From positions 21,643 through 85,642 of the forward strand of contig JBGUXP010000011.1 in NCBI GenBank assembly GCA_045222295.1: a stretch of 64,000 nt of DNA, in the 5' to 3' direction. The notes beneath the pieces are model-generated. The model had not been told where the DNA came from, made no database searches, and worked only from the letters and a program-made list of their open reading frames with translations. The stretch comes from Bacteroidales bacterium. Its GTDB lineage: Bacteria; Bacteroidota; Bacteroidia; Bacteroidales; P3. The translations under genes were made by a program, and so were the position numbers. Of this stretch, positions 2 through 63,366 are shown in pieces. Numbering within the stretch: position 1 is the stretch's first letter; each line of letters begins with the position of its first letter.

Positions 2-145
2 GACTTCGAACCCTCCGACGAAGACCTCCGTGGCATTGAAGAGGAATATCTCGATGCTGAGATACCGCCTCTCGATGCTACCATTCCTGAAGAGGAAATG
101 GCTACCAAGCCCAAGAAACGTGGCCGCAAAAAGAAAACAGAATGA
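2..145 (+). CDS. 3' end of an upstream CDS (last 47 aa, acidic then a KKRGRKKK tail); product not identifiable
   Basis: Frame 2 is open from the window edge to TGA at 143-145, which overlaps the next ATG (ATGA). It is absent from the ORF track because no start lies in the window. Confidence 0.4.
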   Translation, partial: DFEPSDEDLRGIEEEYLDAEIPPLDATIPEEEMATKPKKRGRKKKTE

Positions 146-942
146 ATAAATCAAATAACATAAAACCAATGAAAAATATCGTAAAAGTTCTCTGCCTGAC
201 CGCCATGATAATGTGCGTCGGTGCCACAGTGCAAGCCCAGTCCTATATCCGCCAGTCAATCTACCTGAACGGCAACATCCCCACTGGCAACTTCGGTTCC
301 AGCGCTTCTGAGGGGCCCAACCTCTCGACAATTTTTACCGGCACCACCACCTTCCCAACTTCCGGAGTGCCTCTGACCTATGAACAAATTGGAAAAGATG
401 CTTCTGTCGGTTTCGGCCTTGGATATCGCGTAAGTTACCGTTTCGATGTCGGTGTGGGCGAAGTAGCCCCCTTTATCAATGCCGACTTCCTCTGGAACAC
501 TATCTCGAGCAAATGGCGCGACAAATATAGCGATGCTTACTACAGCGCTCCCACCTATTTCAATATTCCTGTTATGGGAGGTGTGAGTTATATTTATGAC
601 GAACTCCCCTGGAGCGACATCTCGGCTTTTGGCGAGTTCGGCATTGGTTCCGACTTCCTATGGATTACCTCCGAAGGCAAAGGGGACGGCAACGAGCGCT
701 TTGCTTATAAATCCACCTTCGCTTTCGCTTGGATGATAGGCGCCGGTGCCTACTTCGGACAACATGTCAGTGCCGGTATCTACTATTACGGCCTTGGCAA
801 GCACCCCATCGATTATTCCAACAGCACCATGGAGAACAACCTCTATGCCAACGGTCAGGTGAGCGCCAACGATGCCGCCGGCAAGGGTCGCCAACAGCGC
901 ACCGTAGGTTCCATCATGCTCCGCATCGGATTCCACTTCTAA
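142..942 (+). CDS. Outer-membrane beta-barrel protein (porin/OmpA-like barrel family)
   Basis: Signal peptide ending AQ/S, alternating aromatic/Gly beta-strand pattern, C-terminal Phe (RIGFHF) typical of OMPs. Confidence 0.6.
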   Translation: MNKSNNIKPMKNIVKVLCLTAMIMCVGATVQAQSYIRQSIYLNGNIPTGNFGSSASEGPNLSTIFTGTTTFPTSGVPLTYEQIGKDASVGFGLGYRVSYRFDVGVGEVAPFINADFLWNTISSKWRDKYSDAYYSAPTYFNIPVMGGVSYIYDELPWSDISAFGEFGIGSDFLWITSEGKGDGNERFAYKSTFAFAWMIGAGAYFGQHVSAGIYYYGLGKHPIDYSNSTMENNLYANGQVSANDAAGKGRQQRTVGSIMLRIGFHF

Positions 943-21740: not shown

Positions 21741-22859
21741 TTAAATTATTATTGCCTCGGGTTCTAACTGAACGCCGAATTTATCTTTCACATCTTGTTG
21801 TATTGCTTGCGCGAGAGCCACCACCTCGCCGCCTGAGCAGCCACCGGCATTGTATAGCACCAGCGCATTTTGGGGCCACACCCCTGCCCTACCTTGCGTG
21901 CGTCCCTTCCATCCCGCACGGTCGATAAGCCAGCCTGCAGAAAGCTTATATCCGTTACACACTCCTCCACCCTTCGGGTTCCCCTCCCCTAACTTAGGGG
22001 AGGAACTGTTGCCGCAACCACAACTATCCAACTGTTCCCCTAAGTTAGGGGAGCAGTCAACACAACGTGTTGACTGAGGATTGTGTACCCCGTGGGCCTC
22101 GGGCATATCGGGATATTCTTGCTTGATACGGAGGTATGTCGATTCTTCCACCACGGGATTTTTAAAGAAACTGCCTGCAGAGCCATGCTCCTCGGGTTTC
22201 GGGAGCTTTCCCCAACGGAGGTCGATGATGGCATCGCGAAACTGCTGCGCCGTGGCGTGGGGCAGTCCTTCAAGTGCCTTGTAGCTTAGATTACGAACGA
22301 ACGTGCGGCTGAGACGGAATGACACCCTTAGAATCAAGTAGCGACCCGGCTGTTCCTTGAACATCGACTGGCGGTAAGCAAAACGGCAGTCGGCATTGCT
22401 GAACGAGCAGCGACGATGCTCCACGAGGTCGTAGGCTTCCACACGCTCGATAAAATCCTTGGCTTCGGCACCGTATGCACCCACGTTCTGCACTGCCGAC
22501 GCGCCCACGGTGCCGGGAATGGCCGAGAGGTTCTCCAGGCCATAGAAACCTTGGTCGAGCGTCCACTGCACCAAGTCGTCCATCACCATGCCGCCCCAGG
22601 CGGAAATTGTTGATAGTTGGTAGTTGATAGTTGGTAGTTGATAGTTACGACCAAGCGTTATGACGGTGCCGTCATAATCCTTGGTGAACACCATGTTACT
22701 GCCGCCACCAAGAATCAACATCCTCACTTCATCCTCCCTCTCCGAGGGGGGCAGGGTGTTTACATCCTCCTCATTCTCAATCACCACCAGTCGGCGTGCC
22801 TTGACGTCGATACCGAAGGTGCAGAAGTCCTTCAACGAAATATCTTCGTAAATCTTCAT
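21741..22859 (-). CDS. murB: UDP-N-acetylenolpyruvoylglucosamine reductase MurB, carrying repeat-derived in-frame insertions
   Basis: FAD-binding N-terminus (LILGGGSN), GSFFKNP, C-terminal SAGWLID and NALVLYN motifs. The 372 aa looks longer than I would expect for a MurB because of the inserts. Confidence 0.93.
   Translation of the reverse strand: MKIYEDISLKDFCTFGIDVKARRLVVIENEEDVNTLPPSEREDEVRMLILGGGSNMVFTKDYDGTVITLGRNYQLPTINYQLSTISAWGGMVMDDLVQWTLDQGFYGLENLSAIPGTVGASAVQNVGAYGAEAKDFIERVEAYDLVEHRRCSFSNADCRFAYRQSMFKEQPGRYLILRVSFRLSRTFVRNLSYKALEGLPHATAQQFRDAIIDLRWGKLPKPEEHGSAGSFFKNPVVEESTYLRIKQEYPDMPEAHGVHNPQSTRCVDCSPNLGEQLDSCGCGNSSSPKLGEGNPKGGGVCNGYKLSAGWLIDRAGWKGRTQGRAGVWPQNALVLYNAGGCSGGEVVALAQAIQQDVKDKFGVQLEPEAIII
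21981..22076. repeat. Palindromic element, family C, copy in murB (two CCCCTAASTTAGGGG palindromes plus a GTCAACAC hairpin)
   Basis: CTCCCCTAACTTAGGGGAG at 21984-22002; TCCCCTAAGTTAGGGGA at 22036-22052; GTCAACACAACGTGTTGAC at 22056-22074. The same termini occur at 42879-42955. Confidence 0.85.
22607..22648. repeat. Heptanucleotide tandem repeat (TAGTTGR x6) in-frame in murB
   Basis: TTGTTGA TAGTTGG TAGTTGA TAGTTGG TAGTTGA TAGTTAC, 42 nt in total. Encodes NYQLPTINYQLSTI. Confidence 0.85.
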
Positions 22860-29548: not shown

Positions 29549-29662
29549 CGAACATTTTTGAAACTGACAAAAAAAAATTCAAAAAACCTCTTTTTTTTCT
29601 TCTTTCAACCCTCCTCTAAGATTCAATTTCACCCGCATTCCACAACATTGGTTTTCATATAG

Positions 29663-29730
29663 TTAATATGTTGTTCTTATGTTGTTCTTTAGATTAAATC
29701 ATAAGAACAACATAAGAACAACATTATATC
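29663..29730. repeat. Intergenic palindromic repeat, family D, copy 1
   Basis: (ATGTTGTTCTT)x2, a 13-nt loop, then (AAGAACAACAT)x2: 22-nt perfect arms. Near-identical copy at 51170-51237. Confidence 0.85.
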
Positions 29731-29829
29731 AGTATTGGAAATGAGCAACTTAAGGACACCTTATTCATTGCATACAGGAAGATTTCCAGGTTGAATGAAA
29801 ATGTTTGCGCACAAATGTAAAAAATAATG

Positions 29830-42422: not shown

Positions 42423-43226
42423 TTAAAACAAGGCTAACTGGCGTACGCCAGATTGGCAGTGCGATTGATACGGACACTCATACGGAGTCAGGCAATGCTG
42501 ACCCGTGGGGGTGTCCGGTTCGTTTATGGCGAGGGCTATCGCCTTCATGGTGGCGATGTTCTTCTCTATCTCGTCGTGCTGGGCTTGCAATGCTTCGGTG
42601 AGGTCTTCTGTGATGAAGCCGCCGACGGGGTTGGCGTAGACGACGCAGAAGGAGTGTATCTCGCGGCAATGTGATATGATATAGTGCTGCAACGCAGCGT
42701 CGCGGCGGTATGTCTTGCTGAGGGCAGTGCCGCTCTTCACCTCGTAGATGTCCAATGTCCCGTCTTCGCGTTGGCGGACCACATCGGCCAGCACCAACAC
42801 TTCGTCATGGAGAAATCCTGCTTCAAAGAGGGTGACTGGTGTGGCACACTCCTCCACCACCGCTTCGCGGCGGTCCCCCTCCCCTAACTTAGGGGAGGAG
42901 CCAAGACAGTTATCTGCAAGGACTTTCTTCAGCTCTCCCCCTAAGTTAGGGGGAGTACCCCGCAGGGGGGAGGGAGTGTGTAACCTGTCAAGAAGCTGCG
43001 CCGTGCGCTCGGGGTACGCATCCACATTTCTCTTCAGCTCAGCGGAGATATCGATGCCGTCAGGGAAGGTAGCTTTGAATGCGTATTCGAACTCGCGGCC
43101 ACGGTCGAACCGCAGCATCTGCTCACGCGTGTATTTTGCCAACCGCGGGTTGTGGACATCGAGCCACAACGCTCTGTCGCACTGGAGGCCACGGATATAC
43201 TTGCTCTTGCTCAACAGATGGCTCAT
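42423..43226 (-). CDS. DUF2779 / Cas4-RecB-like PD-(D/E)xK nuclease family protein (short form) carrying a palindromic in-frame insert
   Basis: N-terminal LSKSKYIRGLQCDRALWL signature; C-terminal Cys cluster C..YECPYQSHC. Confidence 0.65.
   Translation of the reverse strand: MSHLLSKSKYIRGLQCDRALWLDVHNPRLAKYTREQMLRFDRGREFEYAFKATFPDGIDISAELKRNVDAYPERTAQLLDRLHTPSPLRGTPPNLGGELKKVLADNCLGSSPKLGEGDRREAVVEECATPVTLFEAGFLHDEVLVLADVVRQREDGTLDIYEVKSGTALSKTYRRDAALQHYIISHCREIHSFCVVYANPVGGFITEDLTEALQAQHDEIEKNIATMKAIALAINEPDTPTGQHCLTPYECPYQSHCQSGVRQLALF
42878..42970. repeat. Palindromic element, family C, copy in the DUF2779 gene
   Basis: CTCCCCTAACTTAGGGGAG at 42879-42897; CTCCCCCTAAGTTAGGGGGAG at 42934-42955; CCCCGCAGGGG hairpin at 42958-42968. 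Confidence 0.85.
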
Positions 43227-46974: not shown

Positions 46975-47012
46975 TGTTATTTGTTTTTGATTATTATTGT
47001 CTATTTTTTATT

Positions 47013-47121
47013 GGGGTTAATGGGCTTAATGGGTTTAATGGGCGCTGACGCATGATGGCTATTGCCCAAATCGCCCATTAGACCCATTAAACCCATTTTG
47101 CCCATTCTGCCCATTAAACCC
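47013..47121. repeat. Inverted pair of 9-nt repeat tracts (AATGGGNTT family)
   Basis: Left arm GGGGTTAATGGGCTTAATGGGTTTAATGGGCG at 47013-47044 is intergenic. The right arm at 47072-47121 is its imperfect reverse complement and encodes the C-terminal GFNGQNGQNGFNGSNGR tail of the next gene. Confidence 0.8.
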
Positions 47122-47673
47122 ATGACTATCTCTGTAGGCTTTCCTCGCCCTGTACATCTCCTCTTTTATCCCTCCGTTCTCGAGGAAATTCCTCTTCTGC
47201 CACTCGATAAGTCCTTTTATCAGCACGTCGCACTGGTGTATCAGCGTGATGGCGATGTTGGCGATTGTCTCGTCCGAGCGGTCTTTTATCTTCTCGCGGT
47301 ACACTGCCGAGTCGAGGTGCCGCTTGCAGAACTCCCGCGTCTGGACGCAGCGTGGGTCATTGTACGGCCACTGCTCCAGACCTCTCACACGAAGGTAGTC
47401 CTCATAGTCCAGCAGAAGCTCGTGCAGCGAGGCACGGTTGACGTTGGTCAGCTTCAGCTCCATCTCCTTCGAGGTGATGCCGTCGATGTTGCCCTCGGCA
47501 AGGTTCTGCTTGCCGCTCCGTGCCGCCTGCACCATCTGGTCTATCGTGCGGTCTCCTTTCACCAAGAACTTATTGGCAAAATAATAGGTCACGTCGTAGA
47601 CACACTCCGCTTTCTGGAATGCCTTCAACGTCCTGTAGTTGTTATCTTGCCGTATAAAGTCCCTGTCGGTCAT
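47059..47673 (-). CDS. Four-helix-bundle (23S rRNA IVS / Avd-like) family protein with suffix domain and repeat-encoded tail
   Basis: N-terminal ..YRTLKAFQKAECVYDVTYYF..K.DRTIDQMVQAARSGKQNLAEG pattern. Confidence 0.7.
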   Translation of the reverse strand: MTDRDFIRQDNNYRTLKAFQKAECVYDVTYYFANKFLVKGDRTIDQMVQAARSGKQNLAEGNIDGITSKEMELKLTNVNRASLHELLLDYEDYLRVRGLEQWPYNDPRCVQTREFCKRHLDSAVYREKIKDRSDETIANIAITLIHQCDVLIKGLIEWQKRNFLENGGIKEEMYRARKAYRDSHGFNGQNGQNGFNGSNGRFGQ

Positions 47674-51139: not shown

Positions 51140-51169
51140 GTTCTATCTGGTAAGCTGATTTCCATTTTA

Positions 51170-51237
51170 TTAATATGTTGTTCTTATGTTGTTCTTTAGA
51201 TTTATTCATAAGAACAACATAAGAACAACATACTATC
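51170..51237. repeat. Intergenic palindromic repeat, family D, copy 2
   Basis: Arms identical to 29663-29730; only the loop and flanks differ. Confidence 0.85.
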
Positions 51238-51314
51238 AATATGAAAAATAGGCTTTTAGGTGGCACTTTTATTGATTTTGTATTGCAACGGGGTGATATT
51301 CTGGATTTTTTGTG

Positions 51315-62124: not shown

Positions 62125-63279
62125 ATGATCGCCAAGACGATGGTCAACCTCGAAGAAGTGCTGGCCGACGAGTTGCGCGAGATGGGTGCCGAGAATATCA
62201 AAGTTGGTGCCCGTGCCGTGGAGTTTGAGGGCGACATGCGCCTGCTCTACCGCGCCAACTACTGTTGCCGCACCGCCCTGGCCATCCTGAAGCCCTTCGC
62301 CGAGTTCGATGCAAACAACGACCAAGAGCTTTACGACCAGGTATACAAAATCCGTTGGGAGAAAATCCTCGACGTCGACGGGACCTTCATGATCGACTCC
62401 ACTACCTCCGGCGAGGTATTCACCCACAGCTATTATGCCGCTCTCAAGACCAAAGATGCCATTGTCGACCGCTTCCGCCGCAACTTCGGCAAGCGCCCCA
62501 ATATCGATACCGAACAACCCGACTATAAATTCAATTTGCATATCCGAGACAATCATGTCACCCTGCTGATGAATGCCTCTGGCGACTCGCTCCATAAGCG
62601 CGGTTACCGCCAAGGTGTGGGCATAGCCCCCATCAATGAGGTCCTCGCCGCCGGTCTCATCAAGCTCGCCGGATGGAAAAGCGACACCAATTTCTACGAC
62701 CCCATGTGCGGCTCCGGCACCCTGCTCATCGAAGCTGCCATGATGGCCAACAACATCCCCGCACAGTATTACCGCAACCGCTTTGGTTTCATGCGTTGGA
62801 AAGAGTTCAATCTGGGAGAGTGGAAGAGTGTGAAGAACGAGGAAGACAGAAAAATCGGAGCCGGCGACTTTGACTGTGAAATCTGGGGAAATGACATCGA
62901 CGAGCAGGTCATCCAACAGTGCGAGAAGAATCTCGAATACACCAAACTGCACAAGGACGTGATGCTACATATCGGCGACTTTGCCGAGCAGGACCCGCCC
63001 GAAGGCAAAACATTGATAGTCACCAACCCGCCCTATGGCGAGCGCATCAAAGTCGAAGACCTCAATGCCCTCTACACCCAGTTGGGAGATACCTTCAAGC
63101 AGAAATATGGTAAAGATTGCGACGTGTGGCTCATCACCAGCGACTTCGAGGCGATGAAGCACATCGGGCTCCATCCTTCCAAGAAAATCCCCGTGCAAAA
63201 CGGATCCCTCGACTGCCGCTTCCTCCACTTCGAACTCTACGACGGGTCGAAAAAAACTAAATATCAAACAGAGGAATAA
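62125..63279 (+). CDS. THUMP-domain class I SAM-dependent RNA methyltransferase (RlmL/YpsC-like)
   Basis: MIAKTMVNLEEVLADEL THUMP N-terminus; DPMCGSGT and TNPPYGER motifs. The start could be further upstream (62059). Confidence 0.85.
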   Translation: MIAKTMVNLEEVLADELREMGAENIKVGARAVEFEGDMRLLYRANYCCRTALAILKPFAEFDANNDQELYDQVYKIRWEKILDVDGTFMIDSTTSGEVFTHSYYAALKTKDAIVDRFRRNFGKRPNIDTEQPDYKFNLHIRDNHVTLLMNASGDSLHKRGYRQGVGIAPINEVLAAGLIKLAGWKSDTNFYDPMCGSGTLLIEAAMMANNIPAQYYRNRFGFMRWKEFNLGEWKSVKNEEDRKIGAGDFDCEIWGNDIDEQVIQQCEKNLEYTKLHKDVMLHIGDFAEQDPPEGKTLIVTNPPYGERIKVEDLNALYTQLGDTFKQKYGKDCDVWLITSDFEAMKHIGLHPSKKIPVQNGSLDCRFLHFELYDGSKKTKYQTEE

Positions 63280-63280
63280 A

Positions 63281-63366
63281 CCCCGTAGGGGTGACAGAAC
63301 TTAGCCGGGGGCAAAAGCCCCCGGTAGCTGTTTCCGAACTGTATTAGAGCCCCGTAGGGGCGACAG
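63281..63366. repeat. Structured intergenic element: two direct CCCCGTAGGGGYGACAG units flanking a CCGGGGGC-AAAA-GCCCCCGG hairpin
   Basis: Direct repeats at 63281-63297 and 63350-63366; 8-bp GC hairpin at 63305-63324. Confidence 0.7.

Follow-up and report, generated by a model that had tools for sequence, protein, structure and literature searches.

A palindromic repeat in frame within murB appears to belong to a modular, non-autonomous element family of Bacteroidales with a candidate DUF559 endonuclease partner

Introduction

What is a run of palindromic DNA doing inside the open reading frame (ORF) of an essential gene? The question is raised by murB on a 64-kb stretch of a Bacteroidales genome (contig JBGUXP010000011.1 of assembly GCA_045222295.1; the whole stretch is hereafter called the window). 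A first-pass annotation, made from the letters alone, had noticed two palindromes and a third hairpin in this gene, had seen the same palindromes in an unrelated gene, and had proposed an in-frame selfish repeat akin to the Rickettsia palindromic elements (RPEs). Our analysis supports that proposal. To judge from its sequence relatives, the murB segment is a copy of a non-autonomous repeat that is widespread in Bacteroidales and that, as we infer, is or recently was mobile. The repeat recurs at unrelated loci with a modular anatomy, its genic copies preserve the reading frame, most orthologues of its host genes lack it, alleles at its insertion site turn over between close strains, its hairpins covary, and genes of the DUF559 family carry the same ends. 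We put the probability of the combined reading, in which a modular, non-autonomous palindromic repeat is translated in genes and is linked to DUF559 (a step that we infer), at roughly 0.7. That the repeat is selfish, coding-compatible and translated we hold with high confidence; that DUF559 is its engine we propose tentatively, at slightly less than even odds. The annotation was incomplete rather than wrong, having missed the outer repeats, the modular hairpins, a shorter family and the DUF559 link.

Results

Anatomy of the element

The palindrome CCCCTAASTTAGGGG occurs exactly four times in the 64-kb window, as two pairs beginning at 21986 and 22037 and at 42881 and 42938, where 0.05 occurrences are expected by chance; none of 100 shuffles reached four, and no further match was found in the window with up to 2 mismatches allowed. 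A sequence scan placed these copies (21986-22000, 22037-22051, 42881-42895 and 42938-42952) where the annotation had them. Its third hairpin (CAGTCAACAC/GTGTTGACTG, 22054-22076) is likewise present, and the translations it quoted are correct, coming from a murB ORF of 372 aa (21741-22859, minus strand) and a second, Cas4-like ORF of 267 aa (42423-43226, minus strand). The extent it gave to the murB repeat, 21981-22076, takes in the palindromes and the hairpin and is too short, as each palindrome pair is the core of a larger element delimited by outer inverted repeats, 21956-22087 in murB and 42844-42981 in the Cas4-like gene.

The murB copy (132 nt, 44 codons) is bounded by TACACACTCCTC / GAGGATTGTGTA and the second copy (138 nt, 46 codons) by GCACACTCCTCC / GGAGGGAGTGTGT. 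The parts follow one another as terminal inverted repeat (TIR), GC hairpin, palindrome 1, spacer, palindrome 2, hairpin and TIR. A half element comprises the terminal repeat, a short GC hairpin and CCCCTAASTTAGGGG, and two halves are opposed across a free spacer, palindrome 2 being the reverse complement of palindrome 1 in both window copies. The boundaries of the murB element agree with those of 22 aligned copies at unrelated loci, other Prevotellaceae-type copies have the consensus terminal end ACACACTCCTC in common, and the window holds 6 matches to the terminal-repeat end with at most 1 mismatch versus 1.08 expected. When the two window loci are aligned, similarity reaches well past the palindromes; the hairpin sequences are not alike between the copies. 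The features are as follows, family A being the window type among two architectures described below.

21956..22087, minus strand: complete family-A element in murB, in frame; 132 nt (44 codons), encoding VHNPQSTRCVDCSPNLGEQLDSCGCGNSSSPKLGEGNPKGGGVC; inverted repeats at the ends and hairpins within
21956..21967, plus strand: terminal inverted repeat, one arm, TACACACTCCTC; from inverted-repeat search
21969..21979, plus strand: variable GC hairpin module A-CCC-TTC-GGG-T, read from the sequence; belongs to the class of covarying linker hairpins
21983..22003, plus strand: palindrome 1, CCTCCCCTAACTTAGGGGAGG, core 21986-22000; palindrome match
22004..22030, plus strand: inter-palindrome spacer, core-to-core offset 51 nt (17 codons); length and sequence vary among copies
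22031..22057, plus strand: palindrome 2, ACTGTTCCCCTAAGTTAGGGGAGCAGT, core 22037-22051; palindrome match
22054..22076, plus strand: second hairpin module, CAGTCAACAC-AAC-GTGTTGACTG; module type CAGTCA...TGACTG, found in many other copies
22076..22087, plus strand: terminal inverted repeat, other arm, GAGGATTGTGTA; one mismatch to consensus
21741..22859, minus strand: host gene murB (UDP-N-acetylenolpyruvoylglucosamine reductase), 372 aa; Pfam FAD_binding_4 and MurB_C
42844..42981, minus strand: the other complete family-A element, likewise in frame; 138 nt (46 codons), encoding HTPSPLRGTPPNLGGELKKVLADNCLGSSPKLGEGDRREAVVEEC
42878..42898, plus strand: palindrome 1 of second copy, core 42881-42895; palindrome match
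42935..42955, plus strand: palindrome 2 of second copy, with its core at 42938-42952, offset by 57 nt (19 codons) from the core of palindrome 1
42423..43226, minus strand: host gene of the Cas4/RecB-like PD-(D/E)XK nuclease family, 267 aa; typical length 221 aa

Strains L199-L203 read ACACACTCC at the 22076..22087 arm, with the consensus base where the window has its mismatch. As a single strand, each window copy is predicted to form a three-arm junction closed by the terminal repeats (murB copy, z = -8.8 with DNA parameters; second copy, 42844-42981, z = -5.5 with RNA parameters), the two palindromes pairing with each other as an inverted hairpin doublet. An Rfam search with the element (E up to 10) matched no family, and no terminator-like site was found at the element in the orientation of murB.

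On both strands, two of the palindrome's three frames are interrupted by stop codons; elsewhere the element is GC-rich. Reverse-complementing the pair CCCCTAACTTAGGGG ... CCCCTAAGTTAGGGG gives the same sequence again, which reads PNLG...PKLG on either strand. Two arguments of the annotation are affected. Because the pair equals its own reverse complement, the 'same orientation' of both copies is uninformative at the level of the core; the shared reading frame was correctly seen, yet it is forced on intragenic survivors, since only one frame per strand is free of stops.

Insertion sites in murB and the Cas4-like gene

Typical relatives of MurB have 321 aa and read DMPDAH-RSDNG-YKLSAGW, with a 5-residue linker and no such peptide, at the place where the window protein has ~45 extra residues, which bears out the view of the segment as an insert. 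The window protein contains FAD_binding_4 and MurB_C, is collinear with solved MurB structures and aligns with PDB 4JAY/7ORZ (E = 3.6e-75) in two blocks, query residues 2-252 and 304-369, so that query residues 253-303 face a 9-residue connection (residues 260-268) of P. aeruginosa MurB. AlphaFold assigned residues 260-300 a pLDDT of 28-34 with no secondary structure and the flanks 86-96, in a model built from a 58-sequence alignment that we use only for this contrast between insert and flanks, its mean pLDDT being 56.7.

The murB site differs among relatives. In L113 the flanking DNA is ~97% identical, and another palindromic insert, of 85 nt (GTTGATAAGTTGA.../...TCAACTTATCAAC), sits at the same breakpoints, after GGGGT and before TAYAAGCTT; the source genome of this contig appears to encode a second protein that is identical to that of the window. 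Because an unrelated element here fills the exact site of the window element, the murB loop is, judging by these alleles, a hot spot of insertion or replacement. The loop of L117 has only a CCCCCCTCAAGGGGGG hairpin, and L118 retains just the first 22 nt of the element. The window-type allele itself is present in at least 9 independently assembled contigs, counted with P0001, a protein 99% identical to the window MurB; assembly GCA_045113655.1 has this allele. Within the species (L199-L203), the murB element differs from the window at 3-4 of 130 positions and the sequence outside it at 2-6 of 989, and the changes within the element weaken the terminal repeat and the hairpin stems.

The 85-nt element of L113 (3750-3860), unrelated to the window type, encodes the peptide NVDKLNVDKL..NVSTYQHINVSTY. 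Within the window's murB, at 22605-22646 on the minus strand, six tandem heptanucleotides AACTAYC encode NYQLPTINYQLSTI; murB orthologues have other sequences at this site, likewise 7-nt periodic.

The second host gene is assigned to the Cas4-like family only weakly, Pfam Cas_Cas4 matching the insert-free orthologue P0210 with E = 3.5e-4 and 21.1 bits, below the 22.7-bit gathering cutoff. Homologue lengths and the alignment give a typical length of 221 aa for this family versus 267 aa in the window, and the insertion site exists in several states.

Empty site: P0159, P0161 and P0210; LLDKE-EEIDLFEAGF
Full element: window protein among others; sequence like that of the window
Solitary left half: P0180, P0190, P0194 and P0213; HTPSPLRGTPPNLGGEL-VLFEAGF
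Decayed palindromes: P0200, P0201 and P0234; palindromes no longer perfect
Nested insert: P0153 and P0202; 15 aa, LPGPAGDTACDRSGA, exactly at the centre of palindrome 2

The exact centring of the LPGPAGDTACDRSGA insert in palindrome 2 suggests that the palindromes are themselves targets for further insertions. Compared with orthologues from other species (L006 and L054), the window gene has 74-77% nucleotide identity in the flanking coding sequence (54-57% at third positions), 67-70% in the spacer and 99-100% in the 102 nt of element modules, where third codon positions are invariant and where 30 positions were fixed by our selection of loci with an exact palindrome pair. The likeness of the three spacers argues for a single old insertion, in which case selection, or conversion from other copies, must have kept the modules unchanged. 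Individual copies appear to be either maintained or decaying. A second hypervariable loop of the Cas4-like family lies at columns 243-295 of alignment A5 (window protein ...VVYANPVGGFITE...), where other species have repetitive inserts such as GVNGANGQGGQDG or AGETPAHPNYAGETPAHPG.

Distribution and frame filter

Scanning GTDB representatives, one genome for each species, for pairs of palindromes separated by 20-50 nt yielded at least 112 loci. The matches listed come mostly from rumen and gut assemblies of Prevotella, Prevotellaceae, Alistipes, Tidjanibacter, Rikenellaceae, Muribaculaceae, Bacteroidaceae and Bacteroidales, and one lies in an isolate genome, that of Segatella buccae ATCC 33574. 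Together with the window these loci gave 126 palindrome pairs, which were counted as intragenic when they lay in an open frame of at least 180 codons. By this measure 58 of the 126 listed pairs (46%) are intragenic, and in every one of the 58 the spacing is divisible by three and the palindromes are read in the CCT-AAS-TTA-GGG frame. The spacings of the other 68 pairs fall on residues 0, 1 and 2 modulo 3 in 18, 22 and 28 cases, without bias. The annotation had named as refuting a motif with no further copies in its genome and no frame bias; its reading survives, the motif being heavily repeated across the genomes scanned. As random 70-nt windows from the same loci fall within such frames in 86% of cases (versus 46% of pairs), genes are under-represented, yet far less than for ordinary extragenic repeats.

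The hosts are diverse: 53 host ORFs at the listed loci match 75 Pfam families, among them ABC transporters, CNNM/CorC, TonB-dependent receptors, radical SAM enzymes and ECF sigma factors, as well as AcrB, CobQ, alanine racemase and adenylosuccinate lyase. Removal of the segment from RNA as an intervening sequence was considered and rejected, because an excised segment would give no reason for intragenic copies to keep the frame and remain free of stops. Carriage by phage was dropped as well, a scan of IMG/VR viral contigs for the element having found no copy.

The only non-Bacteroidales pair among the matches listed, L098:5607-5685, is in a metagenome-assembled genome of Lysobacterales; it is of the C..C type and has a different context.

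Two architectures and covarying hairpins

Two architectures share the palindrome, namely family A and a shorter family B. Family A has the end ACACACTCCTC in genomes of the Prevotellaceae type, and Alistipes and Rikenellaceae have ACAGACCCCTCC instead; intergenic copies of the family have AT-rich spacers of any length, and spacers are a multiple of three only in intragenic copies. Family B has the structure Pal(G)-GAC-AGGGGTCTGAAC...loop...TTCAGACCCCC-AA-Pal(C) and encodes SPKLGDDRGLNK..SDPQPPNLGG; its units also stand in tandem arrays between genes, and 24 of 30 Pal(G)..Pal(C) doublets are intragenic. Elements are mostly 130-160 nt long (total range 91-163 nt), have TIRs of 11-12 nt and no coding capacity of their own, and cluster and nest in one another. 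An open frame of 1110 codons in L082 has at its start (33-182, plus strand) a tandem array of 45-nt palindrome units (SDPQPPNLGGNxNAG).

The hairpin modules vary in sequence and keep their pairing. From 180 half elements we obtained 114 distinct linkers, and 84 of these form a hairpin with a stem of 4 bp or more. Among the 18 different sequences of the 21-nt linker class, pairing is seen in 79 of 90 stem cells versus 37 of 90 in a control with the partner slid by one base, stem positions taking GC, CG and TA alternatives; in the 19-nt class the figures are 50/56 versus 25/56. The peptides encoded by the hairpins differ freely (HTPSPLRGTP, HSSVSKADSS, LLSQPQAAAS). Because stems vary between copies while pairing persists, these comparisons indicate that constraint acts on nucleic-acid structure and not on the encoded peptide.

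No target-site duplication is visible at 22 family-A and 24 family-B aligned junctions, the exact boundaries of which are not fixed by a near-identical empty site: among the nearest alternative alleles, that of L113 contains another element, and in L115, where the Cas4-like site is empty, the junction is too diverged.

DUF559 genes between the same ends

Among intervals of 400-3000 nt bounded by two palindromes at the listed loci, 6 of 22 hold a small ORF of one family, Pfam DUF559 (PF04480; E = 3e-30; 104.7 and 86.8 bits versus a 20.6-bit cutoff), and no transposase-like ORF recurs in the 22. When the loci and the window were searched with tblastn, 7 DUF559 genes were listed, all 7 with palindromes on both sides within 28-290 nt; the 64-kb window itself gave no DUF559 gene. 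Since the genome loci had been chosen by their palindromes, the test was repeated from the protein side, by a metagenome scan with a DUF559 alignment that returned 80 loci. All nine close homologues (65-98% identity) are flanked on both sides, within 18-171 nt, by exact inverted repeats of 22-30 nt. Eight of the nine have a 30-nt palindrome-plus-GGGGGTCTG end with the consensus AGCCCCCTAAGTTAGGGGGTTGGGGGTCTG and small variants; the exact repeat of L123 is the 22-nt TTAGGGGGTTGGGGGTCTGAAC.

These cassettes are built as end, 10 to 100 nt, an ORF of ~354-366 nt, ~20 nt and end, measure ~450-600 bp and are wedged between host genes. Their ends are those of family B, which amounts to the cassette structure minus the gene. 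In a Muribaculaceae cassette (L046) the DUF559 gene stands between ACACACTCCTC-type halves like the window's, and the cassettes of Alistipes are not cleanly bounded, with a half element upstream and a full doublet downstream. Because DUF559 genes are flanked by the same ends as the short elements, the latter look like gene-less derivatives of DUF559 cassettes. At L046:1865-3889 (minus strand), one 674-codon ORF runs through several half elements, a DUF559 domain, further elements and a 370-aa domain of unknown function, which is either a real fusion or a read-through allowed by the stop-free repeats.

Distant DUF559 homologues have the same architecture with palindromes of their own, for example CCCCTCCTAACTTAGGAGGGG in L140 and TTCCCCTAAAACAGGGGAA in the human-gut contig L183, and at least 21 of the 68 remaining loci have exact inverted repeats of at least 14 nt in their 350-nt flanks, the estimated chance of one being ~5e-4. 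The association of DUF559 with palindromes may accordingly be general and extend well beyond Bacteroidales. Across L119-L198, DUF559 genes from soil, marine and other habitats were often seen flanked by their own G/C-rich, palindrome-bearing inverted repeats, e.g. CCCCTCCTTGAAAAGGAGGGG and CCCCCTTCGGAACGAAGGGGG.

The DUF559 profile matches PDB 3HRL (E = 1.9e-23), and an IELDG...H motif is invariant in alignment A7. VSR, DUF559 and the I-Bth0305I homing-endonuclease domain form one PD-(D/E)XK clade (PMC3424549; PMC9403480). 'DUF559 domain-containing protein' is also enriched among predicted targets of programmed inversion (odds ratio 14.3; PMC9881135), which fits genes flanked by inverted repeats.

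Other repeats in the window

Another palindromic family, with ATGTTGTTCTT present two times and followed by the inverse, is represented at 29657-29735 and 51159-51247; both copies are probably intergenic, the former lying in no open frame and the latter only in one of 110 codons. A third palindromic type at 47007-47123, with TTAATGGGN three times facing its inverse across a 40-nt loop, is probably intergenic too, since only a 54-codon open frame spans it. At 63279-63324 (minus strand) there is an Rfam match to the Acido-Lenti-1 RNA (43.5 bits versus a gathering score of 37), in what is apparently a Prevotella-like genome.

Discussion

A model for the element

We propose that the short elements are internal-deletion derivatives of a ~0.45-0.6 kb cassette encoding a DUF559 (Vsr-like PD-(D/E)XK) endonuclease. 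The nuclease would recognise or nick the palindrome or hairpin, perhaps extruded as single-stranded DNA, and its action would drive copying, gene conversion or replacement of elements in trans. Given the stops that close two of the palindrome's three frames on either strand, and the GC-rich remainder of the element, copies landing in genes should survive only in the single open frame, with a frame-keeping length, and in a loop that tolerates ~45 extra residues. The murB and Cas4-like copies have these properties, and the element is therefore presumably read through and translated into a surface loop that is rich in Gly, Pro and Ser and probably disordered, the peptide presumably having no function of its own. 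Still more speculative, and a little less probable than an engine role in these repeats, is the wider idea that DUF559 proteins are the engines of an unrecognised class of small selfish elements that spawn gene-less palindromic derivatives. On that idea the Bacteroidales derivatives would be built so as to be translatable on both strands and would colonise loops of essential proteins, and Vsr-like nicking at mismatched or extruded palindromes would, via gene conversion, keep genic copies sequence-perfect while the host gene diverges.

Several points weigh against this account. Transposition, nicking or DNA binding by a DUF559 protein was not found in the searchable literature, and, instead of driving the repeats, the DUF559 gene could be carried along by them or be a target that they favour; with no DUF559 gene in the window, the partner in this genome is putative. 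The aligned junctions apparently define neither a target-site duplication nor a target motif. Covariation of hairpins can arise without selection, by intra-strand template switching that restores palindromes. Conservation is mixed, the murB copy looking to be in decay and the Cas4-like copy conserved across species, and of the 102 'conserved' module positions in the latter, 30 were fixed by the way in which the loci were selected and 72 were not. Translation of the insert is deduced from the frame filter only, and the AlphaFold model of MurB is poor overall.

Alternative explanations

Might the repeats be moved by some other enzyme, such as a tyrosine transposase associated with repetitive extragenic palindromic (REP) sequences, an insertion sequence (IS) transposase or host recombination, with DUF559 as landing site or passenger? 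The literature searched offers no biochemical mobility role for DUF559, any small gene in a repeat-rich spot could become flanked by elements that cluster and nest, and the bounds of the Alistipes cassettes are untidy. We consider this unlikely nonetheless, as all 9 cases approached from the protein side have near-identical 22-30-nt inverted ends beside the ORF, each change of DUF559 clade brings another palindrome variant, the family-B element equals the cassette ends minus the gene, the 22 palindrome-bounded intervals share no recurrent transposase-like ORF, and the GTAG/CGTC tags of REPs are absent from the ends. Co-option by the host, for which a three-arm hairpin in mRNA or DNA would be kept because it modulates translation speed, mRNA stability or replication, would suit the very stable predicted folds, the conservation of modules far beyond the surrounding coding sequence in Cas4-like orthologues and the compensatory changes that keep hairpins paired. 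It is nevertheless improbable, and clearly more so than movement by another enzyme: dozens of unrelated genes carry the same element, intergenic DNA has it too, most orthologues lack it, an unrelated insert replaces it in a close strain, the murB copy is accumulating stem mismatches, and neither an Rfam match nor a terminator-like site in the gene's orientation was found at the element.

Recurrence of the peptides PNLGG and PKLGE in many predicted proteins could instead point to a true protein module (a linker or motif under selection as a peptide) that domain shuffling has spread and to which the DNA palindromes would be incidental. Identical DNA outside genes at untranslatable spacings, invariant third codon positions and hairpin-encoded peptides that vary freely while base pairing is kept make this very improbable; moreover, AlphaFold predicts no structure for the insert. 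With the 47-aa peptide as query, a word-indexed protein search gave no scorable candidate and an exhaustive one against 1.84 billion representatives only 8 weak matches, although these searches say little by themselves. Hairpin chimeras arising in assembly or sequencing also have to be weighed, as most loci come from metagenome-assembled genomes. Artefacts, though, would not respect reading frames; moreover, no fewer than 9 murB contigs assembled independently share the insert, and the element turns up in many laboratories' assemblies and in an isolate genome, that of Segatella buccae ATCC 33574, which leaves this explanation with hardly any credit. We therefore retain the selfish, frame-filtered repeat with a candidate DUF559 parent as the best account of the locus.

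Novelty and significance

[quoted passage not shown] The repeat family is apparently undescribed and the DUF559 link new. PINSR, the 'Prevotella-lineage-specific repeat' of P. intermedia, was set aside as a different element without inverted repeats. A 2024 review regards the same in-frame process in other prokaryotes as merely conceivable (PMC10969869). In-frame 'protein-coding palindromes', treated as a peculiarity of Rickettsia, would thus occur at large scale in abundant rumen and gut Bacteroidales, in hosts that include essential or housekeeping genes (murB, ABC transporters, sigma factors, radical SAM enzymes). Such elements are a source of rapid loop-level protein variation among strains and a trap for annotation, homology modelling and strain typing. 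The findings suggest a concrete, testable function for DUF559, a very large family without an assigned one, together with a possible reason why its genes are flagged as 'programmed inversion' targets (PMC9881135), and they could credibly lead on to a class of endonuclease-associated mobile element that is new. Cultivable Segatella and Prevotella offer a tractable system for element movement, a question shared with RPEs.

Comparison with known systems

As two later papers relate (PMC10969869; PMC3733652, on Ogata et al. 2000 Science and 2002 Genome Res), RPEs are palindromic repeats of ~100-150 bp, in several families, that add a peptide at tolerated positions, ~43% of RPE-1 copies being intragenic. 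The Bacteroidales element is similar in size, in its in-frame copies in unrelated housekeeping genes and in its intragenic share (46% versus ~43% for RPE-1). It differs in having terminal repeats, covarying hairpins and a 15-nt perfect palindrome, and its hosts are free-living gut and rumen Bacteroidales in place of obligate intracellular Alphaproteobacteria. It also has a candidate protein-coding parent in the DUF559 cassette, and we know of none for RPEs. The likeness is one of behaviour; the element is best regarded as analogous to RPEs and is not claimed as a member, descent from them being implausible with a Bacteroidales host.

REP sequences, REPINs and their REP-associated tyrosine transposases (RAYTs) offer a second parallel, with GC-rich hairpins arranged as inverted doublets that form a longer structure, high copy number and one small gene flanked by its own repeats (PMC3116915; PMC3733652). 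Some REPs lie within genes, and single halves of the Bacteroidales element also exist. The GTAG/CGTC tag is missing, however, the ends being ACACACTCCTC or ACAGACCCCTCC in family A and the palindrome itself in family B; the intragenic share is much larger; and the flanked gene is a PD-(D/E)XK DUF559 gene, not an IS200/IS605-like Y1_Tnp, no whole-genome search for RAYTs having been made. Bacterial MITEs (Correia/NEMIS, ERIC, BOX, QMITE; PMC10969869) resemble the element in their TIRs, their want of coding capacity, the relation of parent to deletion derivative and occasional in-frame fusions. They differ in that the putative parent here encodes a DUF559 endonuclease and no DDE transposase, that no target-site duplication was seen, and that the ends are themselves perfect palindromes and hairpins.

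The Vsr-like EDxHD homing endonuclease I-Bth0305I (PDB 3R3P), considered beside the DUF559 structure 3HRL, indicates that this fold can serve a selfish mobile gene (PMC3424549; PMC9403480). The DUF559 gene differs in being free-standing between palindromic ends and not housed in an intron or intein, and classical homing is directed to one cognate allele, whereas the Bacteroidales elements occupy hundreds of unrelated sites. The fungal mitochondrial mobile GC clusters and double-hairpin elements, which belong to organelle genomes and are unrelated in sequence to the Bacteroidales element, are likewise short and GC-rich, lie in frame in coding regions and are found near mobile endonuclease ORFs.

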